Of a stretch of 37,279 nucleotides of DNA, positions 25,654 to 36,226 are shown piece by piece. The stretch is from a virus (Duplodnaviria > Heunggongvirae > Uroviricota > Caudoviricetes), in IMG/VR virus record IMGVR_UViG_2718217859_000009; one strand, given 5' to 3'. Below the pieces are notes generated by a model that was given only the letters and a program-made list of their open reading frames with translations, was not told where the DNA came from and made no database searches. A program made the translations under genes and the position numbers. The stretch's first letter is position 1. Each line of letters starts with the position of its first letter.

Positions 25654-26655
25654 ATGGGTGGAGAGACTTCGGCTATACAACGAGTCGCGGGTAAGATTTC
25701 TGATGATATTTTCTCAGTGTTCAAATGGGATCGTGCCGCTAGAGCGGACATGAATTGGGATTGTTGCCAAGAGGCTCATTCCAAGAAAACACATCCAAGC
25801 GATGTTGTATTTTTCTACATAGATCCATATGAGGAGGAAATGGTCTATCTCAACACAGACCTCAAAAGCTATGCAGAAGGTACTATTGGGAAAAAAATAG
25901 TCGAGGGAGCTTTAACATCGCTTGCTTTAGCTACCGAATGTGCAAATGTCAGTGAAGAATGGCGATTGAAATATGTTCATGATGATTCTTTAGGTTATAA
26001 CGTAAGAGGGTTATTATTCTTATATAACCATGATAATTTATATGATAAAGACTTCTATGAGAATATTACAAAAAAATTAGATCACTCATCTATAAATTGC
26101 CCTCCAAACATCAAACTACATTTGCTTGACCCTTATAAAATATCAGATTTGATAAACATATCTTCTGACATAACTAAGTTAATTGGTTCAGGCAAACTTC
26201 CTCAACCTGATAAGTTCACATATTATTATCCAGATCTTTCCCTAACAAGAATAAAGCACCCTATTAATCAGACAACACCTGCAACAATTGAATTATTAAC
26301 ATCACCATACATTATAATAAAGCATGAGGCTTTCAGTTGGCTCAGGGATAAAAACCCTGAGGGATATGTTGTTTATTACAATCAACCGGGGGATTCAGTA
26401 GACGAATTCGTTTACTTCTTTGATATGTTATCAACTTATCAGATATTAACCGAAGGTAAACCAATCGTATTACGCCATTGTCACATTCACCCAAATGAAA
26501 ATGCCATTCATCATTTTGAAAGAGCGAAAAAGAAATACAGCACAGACTGGCTCTTAGGCGAGGATGAAAGACTTTTTCTTAAAATTGACTTCGACAAGAC
26601 AGACAAAATTGTTGTTGAATATAATCTTGAACAAATCGGCATGGAGCAACGATAA
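25654..26655 (+). CDS. hypothetical protein, gene 1 of AT-rich three-gene cargo operon (candidate defence system)
   Basis: 333 aa, AAGGAG ribosome-binding site, stop overlaps the start of gene 2 (TAATG); possible D...E-x-K nuclease-like motif (FFYIDPYEEEMVYLNTDLK), unverified. Confidence 0.7.
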   Translation: MGGETSAIQRVAGKISDDIFSVFKWDRAARADMNWDCCQEAHSKKTHPSDVVFFYIDPYEEEMVYLNTDLKSYAEGTIGKKIVEGALTSLALATECANVSEEWRLKYVHDDSLGYNVRGLLFLYNHDNLYDKDFYENITKKLDHSSINCPPNIKLHLLDPYKISDLINISSDITKLIGSGKLPQPDKFTYYYPDLSLTRIKHPINQTTPATIELLTSPYIIIKHEAFSWLRDKNPEGYVVYYNQPGDSVDEFVYFFDMLSTYQILTEGKPIVLRHCHIHPNENAIHHFERAKKKYSTDWLLGEDERLFLKIDFDKTDKIVVEYNLEQIGMEQR

Positions 26656-27734
26656 TGGCTAAAAAACTATATTTCGCAACTGATAAAAATATTTATGATG
26701 CATTACATCATAAAAGGATAACCGCTGCAAAGTTGCATGAATTATTGTTGAATCGAGGTGTGTTTTTATCACCAGAACTCGACAAGGAAATACTAATCGA
26801 GGAAATATCCAAACTTCCTCACGGATTTAATGAATTAGAACACATAAAAAAACTGGTCAAAACATATGACCCAAGGGAAAGCACTACTAGTGTGAGCTTC
26901 CAAACCTCAACAAATCAGGCCGAATTAAAAAGTGCTGCTGAAGCACTAAAAAAAACATGCTCCCCTAGTAAAGGTCAAAGCCTGAATATTGTAGCTAAAA
27001 AAGATGGCTCGCTTACAGTAGAATACAAATATGAAGAAATAGACCTGTCTAAAACTGCATTACGTCAGATCGACAAGCGGAATGTTATAATAGAACTTCG
27101 CCCTGGAGCTGACAAAGTTGAAGTACGTATGCCTCAAAACCCCGAGGCAAAAAAAGTTATTGAGAGCTTGCAAAACGAGCTATCTAAAATCAAGTCCGAA
27201 CCTATCGAGCGCTTCGAAATATCATTACTAGCAATAACTGATCCTACATTGCGAAGTCAGTTTTTTCAGGAATTAATGAATGGTCTACGCGGTTATGAGA
27301 CTGATGACGTAACAAAAGTCGAATTAAATCGCAGTACTGATGCTAGTGAGGATGAAGACAAGGAAGAAACTATTGATACCGGATTTGTTAAGAAAGCCGT
27401 CCTTAATGGTGAAGGGGTAAATAGTTCAGCTATATTTTCTCAACTACATGAGAAAGGTTATTATATCGGGCGTATTGCATGGTCTTCAAAGCCGACAAGT
27501 GGAATTGGAGACAGAATCAACGTCGAAGCATTTTTCAAAGACTCAGAAAAATGCTGTGACTTTGCCTATCAAATTAAAGGTATAAACAATCAAAAAGAAG
27601 ACGGTTTCAATGTAACCATTCGCGCGGCAACGGCACAAGAGAAAAAACATATTAGTGAATTAATTGAGTCCGCCGCTGAAAATGCCTATAATATAATAAT
27701 AGGATCAGAGGTGAACGAAGATGAAAAAGGTTAA
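26655..27734 (+). CDS. hypothetical protein, gene 2 of cargo operon
   Basis: 359 aa, Lys/Glu-rich, translationally coupled on both sides. Confidence 0.7.
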   Translation: MAKKLYFATDKNIYDALHHKRITAAKLHELLLNRGVFLSPELDKEILIEEISKLPHGFNELEHIKKLVKTYDPRESTTSVSFQTSTNQAELKSAAEALKKTCSPSKGQSLNIVAKKDGSLTVEYKYEEIDLSKTALRQIDKRNVIIELRPGADKVEVRMPQNPEAKKVIESLQNELSKIKSEPIERFEISLLAITDPTLRSQFFQELMNGLRGYETDDVTKVELNRSTDASEDEDKEETIDTGFVKKAVLNGEGVNSSAIFSQLHEKGYYIGRIAWSSKPTSGIGDRINVEAFFKDSEKCCDFAYQIKGINNQKEDGFNVTIRAATAQEKKHISELIESAAENAYNIIIGSEVNEDEKG

Positions 27735-28404
27735 ATGGCTTAAGTTAAACATACGGCTTGAGTTTGAAACAGCCGTTAGACGTCTTTCTCTTGATTCTTT
27801 TACAGAGGATAAAGGGAAAGGGTTCATTTTTGATAAAATACGCCATGATTTTGCAAATGGTCGCTTTGTCGAGCGTATTGTTTATCATGATAAAATATTA
27901 AGCTTTGACGGAAGCGAAACTACCGTTGAAAGAATCGAATATCGCACCACAAATTTTAGCGTGGCTTTAGACTCTCTTCCTGTAATGCAGATTACCAACC
28001 CACCCAGAACTTTAAAGCCTTTTTCGCAGGCTTTGGTAAAAAATCTTGGCTTAGGTGTTAGTTTGGAAGAAATTGACATAAACCCTATAGACTGGCTTAA
28101 TGAAATATCTTCAAGTGTAAATATCAATTTAACACAACTTGATATTTCAAGGGTTAGAGTTTCTGATTACGCCACAGCTAAAATGCAAATAATTGGCAGC
28201 AATGATCTTAGGAAGTATTATAAAGAAGAATTAGAGGGTAAAAAAATAAGAATTGACAGGCTTGTTTGCTCTGTTAATTCATTAGAATATTCCGGTAAGC
28301 TCAAGATCACCAATAGCGGCCTTGCTTATATTGATGTTAGAAATGAGAATGAGTTTACGAAAATCGTTTTTGATACGTTAAAAAAAGTCACCCTTCAATC
28401 ATAG
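27721..28404 (+). CDS. hypothetical protein, gene 3 of cargo operon
   Basis: 227 aa, start overlaps the end of gene 2 by 14 nt. Confidence 0.65.
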   Translation: MKKVKWLKLNIRLEFETAVRRLSLDSFTEDKGKGFIFDKIRHDFANGRFVERIVYHDKILSFDGSETTVERIEYRTTNFSVALDSLPVMQITNPPRTLKPFSQALVKNLGLGVSLEEIDINPIDWLNEISSSVNINLTQLDISRVRVSDYATAKMQIIGSNDLRKYYKEELEGKKIRIDRLVCSVNSLEYSGKLKITNSGLAYIDVRNENEFTKIVFDTLKKVTLQS

Positions 28405-28460: not shown

Positions 28461-28491
28461 GTAGGCGTCAGAATCAAGTTCTGACGCCTAC
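28461..28491. terminator. 13-bp perfect stem-loop between convergent cargo operon and DinI-like gene
   Basis: gtaggcgtcagaa-tcaag-ttctgacgcctac. Confidence 0.5.
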
Positions 28492-28499
28492 AATGTTTC

Positions 28500-28733
28500 T
28501 TAATGCAGCCAGCTATCGTCCTCCCACACCTTCTGCATAATTTTCATCACTTGTTTTCTTTCTTCGTCCAGTTGCAGTCCGGTCAGTTCCACACCGTTAG
28601 AGCTACCTTTGCGGATACGAATTACCGTTTTGGGATACAGGGGGCGCAGATTGCGGTAAAGCTCGGATTCAAGGGCGTCCAGGGTAGACTGGCTAATTTT
28701 CTGCTCTTTATCGATCATTATTTCAATGCGCAT
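28500..28733 (-). CDS. DinI-like protein (186 orf97-like)
   Basis: MRIEIMIDKEQKISQSTLDALESELYRNLRPLYP...WEDDSWL resembles DinI; GAGGTGA ribosome-binding site before the internal ATG. Confidence 0.75.
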   Translation of the reverse strand: MRIEIMIDKEQKISQSTLDALESELYRNLRPLYPKTVIRIRKGSSNGVELTGLQLDEERKQVMKIMQKVWEDDSWLH

Positions 28734-28743
28734 AAAAGTCACC

Positions 28744-28932
28744 TCAGCTGATGACATCCATTGAGCGGTTGTATTCGTGGCTTCTGATTTTTGCCATGAG
28801 TTCATCAGTCAATTCAGAAACCCACTGCAGAGCCAGCCCCTTCTCTTCATCACTACACTCACTAGCCGCTACAAGCTTAAGAAAAAAATCAATGCGCTGG
28901 AGCTTCAAAGACTCCAAAAAATAGTCCTGCAT
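28744..28932 (-). CDS. small SOS-controlled protein, possible Tum-like antirepressor
   Basis: 62 aa from MQDYFLESL with AGGAGG ribosome-binding site; LexA box in its promoter; position matches 186 tum. Confidence 0.45.
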   Translation of the reverse strand: MQDYFLESLKLQRIDFFLKLVAASECSDEEKGLALQWVSELTDELMAKIRSHEYNRSMDVIS

Positions 28933-28975
28933 TTTTCCTCCTATGACACCACAAGCAATACTGTACACATAACCA

Positions 28976-28991
28976 CTGTTTATATTTACAG
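28976..28991. promoter_or_regulatory. LexA (SOS) box
   Basis: CTGT-ttatattt-ACAG, a perfect CTGT-N8-ACAG match, about 45 nt upstream of the small ORF. Confidence 0.65.
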
Positions 28992-29085
28992 TATATAATA
29001 ATCTTACTGATGTAAAACGTTTTTTTACGTTCATCAGCCTGATATGCCTGGTATTATTAAGAGCACGAATTGTTAACCCGCGTAA

Positions 29086-31500
29086 TTAATACAGATCCCG
29101 CCACTTATCATCTTCCTGCAAACGCTGGTTCCGATAGAAGATACGCAGGCCTGCTCCTGACGGAATACTGCCGCCGCGAAGGAGTAAATCGACCTCTTTC
29201 TCGCTGCCATCAAATCCTCTGGACTTCAGTTCATAGACGAGCTGCTGTCGTTGATGGTCTGTAATTCGCTGTTTGTAGTCTCTACGCCGTTTCGGTTTCA
29301 CCAGGCGTAACCTTGCAGCCAGTTCCCGGCGTTCTTTTTTGTTCATACTGTGCAGGTAATCGTGCAACTCCTTGTCATCCATACGGGTGATATCCGTTCT
29401 GGTATCCCCATCAGCTGATTTGTCTTTCCCTTGTTGGTACAAATTTTCAGCAAGGGGACAGTTATTGCCACGAGTCCAAGGGGCGCAAGCGCCCTGGTCG
29501 GCTGCCGCCTCCTGAACATCAACGGCCTTACGAACCATTTTCCACTTCACGGCATGAGTGCAGATCTTGCCCTCTGCAATAGGTGACCAGATGCCATAAA
29601 TACGAATGCCGTGATCGCCATAGGCGGTCGGCTCTTCGTTGATTTCATAAGCGGTTCTGATGAGGTGATATTTGCGGGGAACCAGTACGCCGCCCTGCTT
29701 CATGATGTAGGTGGCAAAACAACCAGCATCAGCAGCAGCCAGGATGGCATCAAGGCGTGGGTTATCCAGTACCGGCGCACCTGCTTTTTTGTCCCCCTGT
29801 TGCCTTGCCGCCTGACCAGCCAGCAATCGCAGTTCACGGTAAGCCTGACGCCCCGGAATGCCAAAGAAGCGGAATTGCTGAACACGATGCAGAGACGCCC
29901 AGGCATTAACGTATTCAGCATTATCACGCAGGGATTTCCCCGTTTCCTTGCTGATCTCGCCAGCCAGACCACGCCCGTCAATGTTCTTACTGATGTATTT
30001 CGCGATGTAGCTTGTTGGCGTTCCTTTGCGCGGGTTAATCAACTCAGACTTAAAGCGCGGCCCAGTGTTATTGCCCAGCTCCTCGCGGTCTTCACGGATG
30101 GCAAACTTACGCAGTAATGCAGTGATGGCACGGCGGTCTTTTTTGCGCATGAAACACAACAGGTGCCAGTGAACTGTGCCGTCATGATGCGGCTCAGCCA
30201 CCCGCACGCCATACCAGCGCAACCCGGCTTTGTGCATCGCCTTACGAAATGCAGCAAACATGCCGACCAGATAATCGCTGCTTTGTCTTACCGTCGCGTT
30301 TGTCCAGGTCGGGTTTGGTCTGCCGTTATTGAGCGTGGAATGGAAACGTGACGGACAGGTGATGGTGTAGAAAACGGCGCAGTCACCGCGCATTTCCGCG
30401 ATAAGCTCCAGACCTTTAACACAGGCCATCATCTCATTGCGGCGATGCGTCGGGTTGCTGCTGCTGGCGTTTACCACATCCTCCATGTCCAGCGTGTCGC
30501 CGTCTTCGTTCACCAGTTCATGAGAACGGAAAAACTCCAGCGACTTACGGCGCTGCTCACGTTTATGCATCACGGCTTCATAGCTGACATAGGGAGATGC
30601 TTTTTTGCTGACCAGGCAGACAGCACGCAACTGCTCTTCCCGCCATTCGCAACGCATCTTCCATAATTTCCGATACCACCAGTCGGCGCACAACATACGC
30701 GCCAGCGAACCCGGAATGAGTTCATAGGGCACGGGTTTACGGCGGTTTCTTTTCCGACGGAGTTGCTCAAACGCAGGAGGGATTACATCCAGACGCAGGG
30801 TTTCCGCTGCCACCTTTTCCCATGTCTTGCGGATTTCTTCTGGCTTAACGTCATCGGTGGCATACAAATCACCACAAGCTGCATCAAGGCACATGCTCAT
30901 ATGCGCGGCAACAAGGGTAGACAGGCGCTTCACCTGATCCTGACTCATTTCAGGCAGGATCAGCAGGCCGTCCAGCCCTTCATGGCTTGCCATAAAGCGA
31001 AAAGAAGTGGATAGCTGACTCTCGCGTACATGCTCCAGTCGTTCCAGACATGGCTTAATCGTCTCACGCAAATAGCGGGAATAAGCCTTTGGCCTGCCCA
31101 GGCTGCTGAAGTATTCAATACGTTGCATCAGCGGCTTGCTGATATGGGAAGGCTGGGCGTTGACGTCCGCCAGAATGACCATATCCGGATTAAAACGCTG
31201 CTGCTCATGCGCCAGCTTTGCCCGACTAATGAGCTTATCCTGCTCGATTTCGCGCTGGACAGGATCACGGGATTCATTAAAGAAATAACGCTCCCAGACC
31301 TGATCACTCAGCGCCTCACGGCGCAGCTGTTCCTGCTCGTTATCGGCAGCGTACAGAGTGATCAGGTTTGAAAGCGCAGAAACCGGCGCAACTTCCGCCG
31401 GGTCCAGATAAGGGTTAATGGCCTTTTTCGGGCTGCTCCATGAGAATGCTGCTGCGACCTCGTTAAAGCCGCTGCAGTTGTTCATATCAGCATGGCTCAT
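29086..31500 (-). CDS. replication initiation endonuclease gpA (rolling-circle HUH relaxase)
   Basis: 804 aa; motifs [15 protein letters not shown] and [12 protein letters not shown] typical of P2 A protein. Confidence 0.92.
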
Positions 31501-34155: not shown

Positions 34156-34243
34156 GATGCAACATCTCCTATTGGCTTGTGGTGAGTCAGTTTTAATCGT
34201 GGCTTTAACTTCACATTTCGGAGAATAGGATCACAAATCGGTT
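34156..34243. promoter_or_regulatory. divergent immunity-switch promoter/operator region
   Basis: 88-bp gap between divergent Apl-like and repressor genes. Confidence 0.5.
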
Positions 34244-35179
34244 ATGTCAACACATGAAATCACATTTCGCCATGTGGACGAAAAAAAGAAATCCTTAATC
34301 ATGCAGAATCGCGGAGGGCAATCGGTTATAGATCGGATACTGAAAGCCTATGGTTTTTCTTCCCGACAAGCATTCTGTAATCACCTAGGTATATCGCAAA
34401 GTACAATGGCGAACAGGTATGCCCGTGACACTTTCCCTGCTGATTGGGTTGTTATCTGTAGCATGGAGACTGGAGTGCCGGTCGAGTGGTTGGCATTTGG
34501 CACTGATACCGAGAAGGGAAGCATTACAAATAATGCAGAAAAAAGTCACAACAATTGTGACAGCAAGCATCAACATCTCAATAGAGAACAAGACATCCAA
34601 AATGAGAACTCTTTTACTATTAACCAAGGTGGAAAAGCAGCAATAGAGCGAATCGTTTTGGCTTATGGATTTAAGACAAGACAAGCTTTAGCTGATCATA
34701 TTGGTGTATCAAAAAGTACATTAGCCAATCGTTACATGAGAGATACCTTTCCTGCTGACTGGATTATTCAATGCTCACTGGAAACCGGTGCTTCATTAAC
34801 ATGGCTAACCACTGGTAACGGGGCAATGTTTGAAAAGCCTCGAAACGATACTATCACTATCCCATATCATAAAATAATTGATGGATCTCTTGCTCAAGAA
34901 ACCTTCTTGACTTTTGACTCTAAGTTGTTAGAAGGAACCTTTCTGCAACCTTTAGCAGTATTCATTGATGAGGAAATATATATTGTAGAATCAAAATTTA
35001 ATGAAGTTACTGATGGCAAGTGGCTTGTGAATATTGAAGGGAAAATAAGTATCAAAGATTTGACTCGCATACCCGTTGGTATGGTTAAAGTTGTAGGCAC
35101 TAACGCAAGTTTTGAATGCTTACTTACTGACATTATCGTTTTGGCAAAATGTAAAAGAGTTTTTACTAAAAATGTATAA
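34244..35179 (+). CDS. putative immunity repressor with tandemly duplicated CI-like DNA-binding domain
   Basis: Two copies of ...R(L/V)(L/V)xAYGF(S/K)(S/T)RQA(F/L)...IS(Q/K)ST(M/L)ANRYxRDTFPADW(V/I)(V/I)xCS(M/L)ETG..., then a distinct C-terminal domain; AT-rich. Confidence 0.65.
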   Translation: MSTHEITFRHVDEKKKSLIMQNRGGQSVIDRILKAYGFSSRQAFCNHLGISQSTMANRYARDTFPADWVVICSMETGVPVEWLAFGTDTEKGSITNNAEKSHNNCDSKHQHLNREQDIQNENSFTINQGGKAAIERIVLAYGFKTRQALADHIGVSKSTLANRYMRDTFPADWIIQCSLETGASLTWLTTGNGAMFEKPRNDTITIPYHKIIDGSLAQETFLTFDSKLLEGTFLQPLAVFIDEEIYIVESKFNEVTDGKWLVNIEGKISIKDLTRIPVGMVKVVGTNASFECLLTDIIVLAKCKRVFTKNV

Positions 35180-35190
35180 AGAGAAACATC

Positions 35191-36135
35191 ATGACTGAAC
35201 CAACCAATAAAGATAGCGAAATAAAAAAACACCTATTAGAATTTCTTGATTCACAGTCTGAAAATATAGCAAAACACTTCTACTCTCATATAAAAGACTT
35301 AATAGAAGCAGGAGAGCTTTCTGAAGCTCATAATAACCTAGCGCTAATTGAAAAATACATAACTAGGCCACCGATGGATGAAGAACCCAATATAAATGAA
35401 AATAAAGCCAATAAAAGAAAAAATGTAAAATCACTTGAACCTAATAATTATGTAGAACATATAATACAATTAGAAGAACGAAACAGCATATTAACTCTAC
35501 AGTTAGAGCATTATACTCAGGATCTTAATAGAAAAAACGCAATAATCGAAAACAACGTAAAACAAATTAATTCATTGATTAGTGAAAATAAGGAACTCCG
35601 TAGCCAAGTACAGCAACAAAGAATCGATGATAAAATCCCCACCTATGTTAACGATGTTAAATCAGATCTTGGTAGTGATGACAAACATTTTATATTGATG
35701 TCTATTATCTGGTCTATTGCAGGGGTATTTTTTGGCTTCCTTGCAGTAGTATCTGCTTTTTTTACATTATACATGAACTTAGATTTAAAAAATCTCACTA
35801 ACCTTCAGTTAATATATATCTTCACGCGAGGATTAGTTGGAATCGCCATTCTTTCATGGCTATCATATATCTGCCTTAGTAACTCAAAAAAGTACACACA
35901 TGAATCGATCAGGCGAAAAGATCGTCGACATGCTTTGATGTTTGGTCAAGTTTTTTTGCAGATATACGGTTCTACAGCAACTAAAGAGGATGCAATAGAA
36001 GTCTTTAAGGATTGGAATATTTCAGGTGACTCTGCATTTTCAGGTCAGACAGAGCAACCACCGAGTTTTGCGTCATTTTTGAATACAATCAAAGACAAAG
36101 TTAAAGTAACTGGAAGTGATAAAGAAACAGATTAA
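35191..36135 (+). CDS. coiled-coil membrane protein (moron between repressor and integrase)
   Basis: 314 aa; N-terminal coiled-coil region (LQLEHYTQDLNRKNAIIENNVKQINSLISENKELRSQVQQQ) then two hydrophobic helices; very AT-rich. Confidence 0.65.
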   Translation: MTEPTNKDSEIKKHLLEFLDSQSENIAKHFYSHIKDLIEAGELSEAHNNLALIEKYITRPPMDEEPNINENKANKRKNVKSLEPNNYVEHIIQLEERNSILTLQLEHYTQDLNRKNAIIENNVKQINSLISENKELRSQVQQQRIDDKIPTYVNDVKSDLGSDDKHFILMSIIWSIAGVFFGFLAVVSAFFTLYMNLDLKNLTNLQLIYIFTRGLVGIAILSWLSYICLSNSKKYTHESIRRKDRRHALMFGQVFLQIYGSTATKEDAIEVFKDWNISGDSAFSGQTEQPPSFASFLNTIKDKVKVTGSDKETD

Positions 36136-36201
36136 TCATGAACATGTATGCTACTAAGTAAAAAATACATTGAATACTGTTTTTATATACAGTTAAATTT
36201 A

Positions 36202-36226
36202 GCCCTCTGATATGAGGGCATTTTTT
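36202..36226 (+). terminator. rho-independent terminator abutting the int start
   Basis: gccctc-tgatatg-agggc then tttttt, directly followed by ATG. Confidence 0.5.

Follow-up and report, generated by a model that had tools for sequence, protein, structure and literature searches.

A split tum operon behind a LexA box: the probable SOS switch of a Fels-2-like prophage of Escherichia coli

The stretch of DNA analysed here (the window; 37,279 nucleotides) is a Fels-2-like prophage of E. coli (Felsduovirus, P2/186 family). Its genes follow the order int, cI, apl-like, cII, fil, DUF2732, DksA-like, dam and A, in agreement with the gene orders of 186, PsP3 and Fels-2, and gene A, which encodes a gpA-like replicase (replication endonuclease; 29086..31500, minus strand), is directly followed by two small genes on the same strand. 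The upstream gene, tumA (28744..28932), encodes a protein of 62 aa and is preceded by the Shine-Dalgarno sequence GGAGG (28937..28941), with four A residues between this sequence and the ATG at 28932. The downstream gene, tumB (28500..28733), encodes a protein of 77 aa, and is separated from the first by the tumA stop codon and 10 nt. 186, PsP3, Fels-2 and E. coli HS likewise have this gene order; in E. coli HS, the genes belong to DuoHS, a P2-like prophage located beside rcdA. DuoHS and the window are collinear over most of their common regions (~93-97% identity), and close relatives of the window prophage are located at the same rcdA-side site. Four complete E. coli chromosomes contain the 701-nt tum region with 100% identity, its identity to Fels-2 is 97% across the part that the two have in common, and DNA resembling the tum module was present in 1124 of 5426 complete genomes. 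An alternative form of tumA, a 96-aa ORF extended upstream (28744..29034), was rejected because it would enclose its own promoter and LexA box; in addition, conservation extends to the Shine-Dalgarno sequence and the ATG (28932) of the 62-aa form, which is also the form used by PGAP and in the study of DuoHS (PMC12055606).

The original prediction, made from the sequence of this region, held that the promoter of the minus-strand gene pair contains a perfect CTGT-N8-ACAG palindrome, and that the 62-aa ORF is followed by a DinI-like ORF. Both features are present as claimed. The core of the palindrome, CTGTTTATATTTACAG, is located at 28976..28991, upstream of the pair. The 20-mer that contains it, TACTGTAAATATAAACAGTG (28974..28993; 28993..28974 when read on the minus strand), begins 60 nt upstream of the tumA ATG and agrees at 17 of its 20 positions with TACTGTATATATATACAGTA, which we take to be the LexA-box consensus. 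A -35 hexamer, TTTACA (29011..29016, minus strand), was read from the sequence at a distance of 17 nt from TACTGT (28988..28993, minus strand), which constitutes the -10 hexamer and, as in the annotated 186 genome, doubles as the left arm of the LexA box. The window therefore has the architecture TTTACA-17-TACTGT-N8-ACAGT, in which the LexA box overlaps the -10 sequence. In the case of 186 (NC_001317), the p95 promoter is annotated with the -35 sequence TTCACA, an 18-nt spacer and a -10 signal, TACTGT (29044..29049), that forms the first six bases of the annotated LexA site (29044..29063). The tum promoter of the window, the equivalent of p95, was assigned by comparison with this annotation; a generic sigma-70 promoter scan returned no promoter at either of the two LexA-type sites of the window, because both -10 hexamers resemble TATAAT only weakly, TACTGT fitting it at three of six positions.

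The stretch from the -35 sequence through the LexA box is identical in the window, E. coli HS and Fels-2, and a box is found at the equivalent position in 186, PsP3, Fels-2, the Yersinia phage vB_YenM_06.16-2, the Cronobacter phage ESSI-2 and ESSI2_ev015, which represent six genera of Peduoviridae. For a wider comparison, 36 genomic loci from different Enterobacterales species were collected that could be found with a TumA alignment, and a box was sought within 150 nt upstream. A perfect CTGT-N8-ACAG was present in 28 of them and CTG-N10-CAG in five more, giving 33 of 36, and one locus is interrupted by a contig end. The full arrangement TTTACA/TTCACA-N16-18-TACTGT-N8-(A/C)CAGT is kept in 27 of the 36 loci, with variable spacers. 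By analogy with DuoHS, which has an identical promoter core and whose induction is blocked by lexA(Ind-) (see below), the box probably functions as a LexA operator, and LexA would thus be expected to bind at 28974..28993. There may also be a weak second site, CTGTACACATAACCAC (28961..28976, plus strand), which overlaps the main box by one base. As read from the sequence, one of its arms (CTGT) is perfect and the other poor; the downstream TACAGT recurs in HS, in Fels-2 and in the loci L009 and L013. We consider this second LexA site a candidate, with low confidence.

The 62-aa protein is identical to WP_001154431.1 and to ECHS_RS04495, the gene product removed as "tum" in DuoHS. It has no Pfam family and corresponds to PHROG 698, which is labelled "unknown function". 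Pairwise BLASTP of the protein against 186 Tum gave no alignment, and the demonstration of homology therefore requires profiles. A TumA family HMM, which takes in ESSI-2-type relatives at 41-49% identity, matches residues 6-48 of 186 Tum with a score of 17.5 bits, where the highest score among 3000 shuffled sequences was 9.5 bits, and matches the "tum protein" of the Yersinia phage at 21.5 bits; the PsP3 TumA scores 3.8 bits in the same register. Aligned with hhalign to a profile of the 186 Tum N-terminal half, Yersinia Tum and PsP3 TumA, the TumA family gave a probability of 95% (E=3.8e-8, columns 6-43). These profile comparisons identify the 62-aa protein as a homologue of the part of 186 Tum that acts as the antirepressor, its N-terminal half. 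The AlphaFold2 model of TumA is a two-helix hairpin (helices 2-23 and 28-61, pLDDT 89.9), and the nearly invariant Cys26 sits in the predicted turn. The "hypothetical protein" WP_001154431.1 and PHROG 698 can now be named TumA.

TumB is identical to ECHS_RS04500 and WP_001217575.1. It belongs to the DinI family as defined by Pfam PF06183 (E=6.6e-23; a score of 81.3 bits, where 24.2 is the cut-off; coverage of all 63 profile positions), and a further match is E. coli DinI (PDB 1GHH), with E=2.7e-6. The C-terminal half of 186 Tum is likewise homologous to TumB: the two show 41% identity over 75 aa (residues 71-145 of 186 Tum; E=3e-24), and TumB aligns to positions 71-148 of the 151-position PHROG 189 profile. 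Membership of the DinI family suggests that TumB may bind RecA filaments and modulate their co-protease activity. Among the 36 loci, the dinI-like gene is intact in 20, truncated in two and missing in 14; it is missing in the ESSI-2-type phages, the Yersinia phages and L009. The presence of a LexA box and tumA without a dinI-like gene in many loci implies that these two elements form the conserved core of the module and that tumB is optional. A short hairpin with a terminator-like match (28738..28755, minus strand), consisting of a 6-bp stem followed by TTTTAT, covers both the stop codon of tumA and the ribosome-binding site of tumB.

Because TumA corresponds to the N-terminal half and TumB to the C-terminal half of 186 Tum, the gene pair of the window is tum split in two. 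The proposed likeness to the 186 p95 operon thus held for the position, the promoter and the LexA box, but not for the gene assignment "tum, then orf97": Orf97 (243 aa) does not resemble the DinI-like protein, a tblastn search of the window with 186 Orf97 gave no match, and the pair matches the two halves of the 146-aa 186 tum product instead. The window shares with 186 the location after gene A, the double use of TACTGT as -10 sequence and LexA-box arm, and a 186-type CI as the presumed target. It differs in that tum of 186 forms a single ORF of 146 aa, with internal starts, and that orf97 is present in 186. The DinI-only products that 186 makes from internal starts (one of them a GTG) are annotated as modulating SOS induction.

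The split arrangement is also found in relatives. Fels-2 (STM2728 and STM2726.1) has the same layout of tumA and a DinI-like gene, with a TumA 97% identical to that of the window and an identical promoter and LexA box, whereas its CI is only 38% identical and the downstream genes (STM2726, STM2723.1) are different. PsP3 has an annotated tumA/tumB split, an upstream LexA box and a TumB of the DinI-like fold family, but its TumA is very divergent. As stated by Lemire et al. (PMC3121763), who cite Bunny et al. 2002, tum is split by a stop codon in Fels-2 and PSP3, and the antirepressor activity of PSP3 resides in the upstream gene; the title of Bunny et al. 2002, as cited there, reports that Fels-2 makes the lexA-null state lethal. 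The Gifsy dinI-gfoA/gftA operons are comparable in that they are LexA-repressed and combine a DinI homologue with a small antirepressor (PMC3121763), but dinI comes first in them, so that the order is reversed, and they belong to another phage type with another repressor family.

The presumed target of TumA is the product of cI (34301..35179, plus strand), a 186-type repressor of 292 aa whose start codon was taken as in the PGAP annotation of L009. The Pfam families Phage_CI_repr (twice) and Phage_CI_C were detected in it, with helix-turn-helix (HTH) domains at residues ~9-75 and 113-177, and the Pfam scan gave no match to Peptidase_S24, the feature of autocleavable repressors of the lambda type. 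The repressor is thus of the 186 CI type, without an autocleavage-domain match, and its duplicated HTH domain is a variation on that type: the CI proteins of 186, Fels-2 and E. coli HS have a single HTH domain and 189-210 aa. Window CI is 47% identical to that of DuoHS and B2C, 38% to that of Fels-2 and 35% to that of 186. Across the 36 loci, TumA is 47-98% identical (at least 65% in 33 of 36), while CI, where it was detected, is 34-53% identical. This conservation of TumA alongside a diverged CI suggests recognition by TumA of a feature conserved among 186-type CI proteins rather than of an immunity-specific surface.

The immunity region of the window (34171..36164) is not common to the window and DuoHS; 114 complete E. 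coli genomes carry it. Between cI and int lies a gene of 314 aa (35191..36135) whose translation contains hydrophobic stretches and is probably membrane-spanning; it matches PHROG 2628 (unknown function) and gave no match in PADLOC. In 186 and Fels-2, unlike the window, cI and int are adjacent. At the locus L009 (E. coli WCHEC035148, 3558..3863), the same tandem-HTH CI as in the window is combined with a different TumA allele and a perfect LexA box, and a dinI-like gene is lacking, which indicates modular shuffling of tumA, tumB and the immunity region.

DuoHS provides the closest experimental counterpart. In the Phollow study of E. coli HS (PMC12055606), an in-frame deletion of tum (ECHS_RS04495) led to the loss of mitomycin C-induced lysis and of virion foci, while the SOS reporter response remained normal, and both lysis and foci were likewise lost in a lexA(Ind-) strain. 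DuoHS is like the window in that the TumA and TumB proteins, the -35 sequence, the spacer and the LexA box are identical and that the pair occupies the same place after gene A; it differs in having a 189-aa CI with a single HTH domain instead of the 292-aa tandem-HTH CI followed by the 314-aa gene for a probable membrane protein, and in having two hypothetical cargo genes downstream. The requirement for tum and for cleavable LexA was therefore shown by others for an identical protein and promoter core, which bears out the original prediction of a Tum-like antirepressor module under LexA control and, by analogy, would apply to the window. It should be noted that window CI is 47% identical to DuoHS CI and has an additional N-terminal HTH domain, and that SOS inducibility of the window prophage is therefore a conclusion by inference. 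As for the interaction itself, 186 Tum acts by sequestering CI (PMC7708051), and in the accounts of PMC3121763 and PMC7708051, both citing Shearwin et al. 1998, binding of Tum to CI has been demonstrated for the 186 protein only; TumA would be expected to bind the unusual tandem-HTH CI of the window in the same manner.

Having shown the sequence anatomy, the homologies and the conservation of the tum module, we consider it very probable that the module is the SOS operon of a Fels-2-like prophage, in which a split tumA-tumB pair constitutes a LexA-controlled antirepressor switch. In the lysogen, host LexA would occupy the box that overlaps TACTGT and the promoter start region, keeping the operon off. 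Upon DNA damage, activated RecA would stimulate self-cleavage of LexA, and the tum promoter would fire. The two-helix, 62-aa TumA would then build up and sequester the 186-type CI stoichiometrically, so that a repressor without an autocleavage-domain match would be titrated, the early lytic promoter derepressed, and lytic growth started. The co-transcribed TumB would have an accessory role, probably in tuning RecA-filament activity and the SOS signal, and the switch would work without it.

Three other explanations were weighed against this one. That the palindrome is a chance match in AT-rich DNA, and the genes LexA-independent, would be in line with the number of CTGT-N8-ACAG sites in the whole window, since two sites against 0.43 expected, with at least two in 6 of 100 shuffles, is weakly significant. 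The site count is by itself weak evidence, and the case for a LexA box therefore stands on position and conservation: in 33 of 36 loci and in six genera, the arms are conserved at one and the same place in the promoter while the spacer varies, we estimate that ~0.002 sites would be expected by chance per 150 nt at equal base frequencies, and lexA(Ind-) stops induction from an identical promoter core (PMC12055606). The chance of a fortuitous palindrome is accordingly close to nil. Only slightly more credible, and still very improbable, is the view that the effector function lies in the DinI-like protein, the 62-aa ORF being a leader peptide or an accessory. A recognisable family exists for the DinI-like half alone, and 186 also makes products that consist of this half only; yet DuoHS is no longer induced once the 62-aa gene alone is deleted in frame (PMC12055606), PMC3121763 places the antirepressor activity of PSP3 in the upstream gene, and the box and tumA occur without a dinI-like gene in 14 of the 36 loci, in ESSI-2-type phages and in Yersinia phages, with a truncated copy in two more loci.

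The remaining alternative concerns the target. The operon could be SOS-induced but TumA inactive on the tandem-HTH CI of its own prophage, as a result of a recombination event that brought in the immunity region. In that case the role of the module would be limited to modulating the host SOS response or to the cross-induction of other Fels-2-like prophages, and its own prophage would not respond to SOS induction. An identical or almost identical TumA is indeed paired elsewhere with CI proteins 38-47% identical to that of the window, the immunity region 34171..36164 is absent from DuoHS, and across the 36 loci TumA and CI have diverged to the different extents given above. However, this same pattern argues that TumA sees a conserved feature of 186-type CI, and the promoter, the box and the ORF are intact in prophages with a tandem-HTH CI, such as that at L009. 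Moreover, antirepressors that act in trans across heteroimmune prophages have been documented (PMC3121763). We therefore regard inactivity of TumA on its own repressor as unlikely, and retain the antirepressor switch directed at the resident CI as the preferred reading.

This reading accounts for the expected inducibility by DNA damage or DNA-damaging antibiotics of a prophage of the P2 family, unlike P2 itself, and SOS inducibility is relevant to phage release and gene transfer in E. coli. The module as such is already known: the mechanism is textbook 186 biology that has been tested experimentally in an identical copy, DuoHS, and the value of the present analysis lies in the correct annotation.

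The second LexA-type palindrome of the window, TACTGTTTTTATATACAGTT (36175..36194, with CTGT-N8-ACAG at 36177..36192), is located just upstream of int, where it forms the 17-nt spacer of a sigma-70-like promoter with the -35 sequence TTGAAT (36169..36174) and the -10 sequence TTAAAT (36192..36197). In a comparison of 80 IMG/VR loci with a nearly identical int, which comprise 31 upstream variants, the CTG-N10-CAG arms and CATTGA were invariant in all 31, and the spacer and all sequence further 5' were variable; most copies, including that of E. coli HS, have CTGG instead of CTGT. The element is kept where the int proteins are 76-88% identical (Dryocola, Raoultella and Klebsiella) and is missing beside int types of ~50% identity. 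From these sequence features, control of int by LexA is possible; among the papers covered, a literature search for LexA-controlled prophage int promoters returned nothing relevant. Downstream of the promoter, a hairpin, GCCCTC-tgatat-GAGGGC, followed by a T-run (36202..36226), extends directly to the int ATG (36227) and includes the ribosome-binding site, GAGG. In related loci its pairing is kept by compensatory variants (GTCCTC/GAGGAC and GCTCTC/GAGGGC), and its role could be attenuation or translational control of int.

As a tentative proposal, which we consider possible but doubtful, SOS control of this prophage might act at two points, the tum operon and an int promoter that combines a LexA-type palindrome with a 5'-UTR hairpin hiding the ribosome-binding site, and one conserved TumA might neutralise many heteroimmune CI proteins, the tandem-HTH form among them. 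If true, the use of one TumA against many CI proteins would permit cross-induction among co-resident Fels-2-like prophages.

At its other end, the tum unit meets a converging operon of cargo genes, and a hairpin with a 14-bp stem lies between this operon and tumB (28461..28491), at the end of the unit. The hairpin was scored as a plus-strand terminator; since a T-run is lacking on the minus strand, the tum transcript may be terminated only in part. The three cargo genes (25654..28404, plus strand; 333, 359 and 227 aa) have no Pfam families, and match PADLOC PDLC03004-6 (Hp1, Hp2 and Hp3) end to end with E ~1e-157 to 1e-248. Together they presumably constitute "3HP", a candidate defence system from P2-like phage hotspots. 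The spot beside tumB holds other cargo in other prophages, as in L009, where it is occupied by a gene for an HsdR-N-domain protein and one for a P-loop NTPase.
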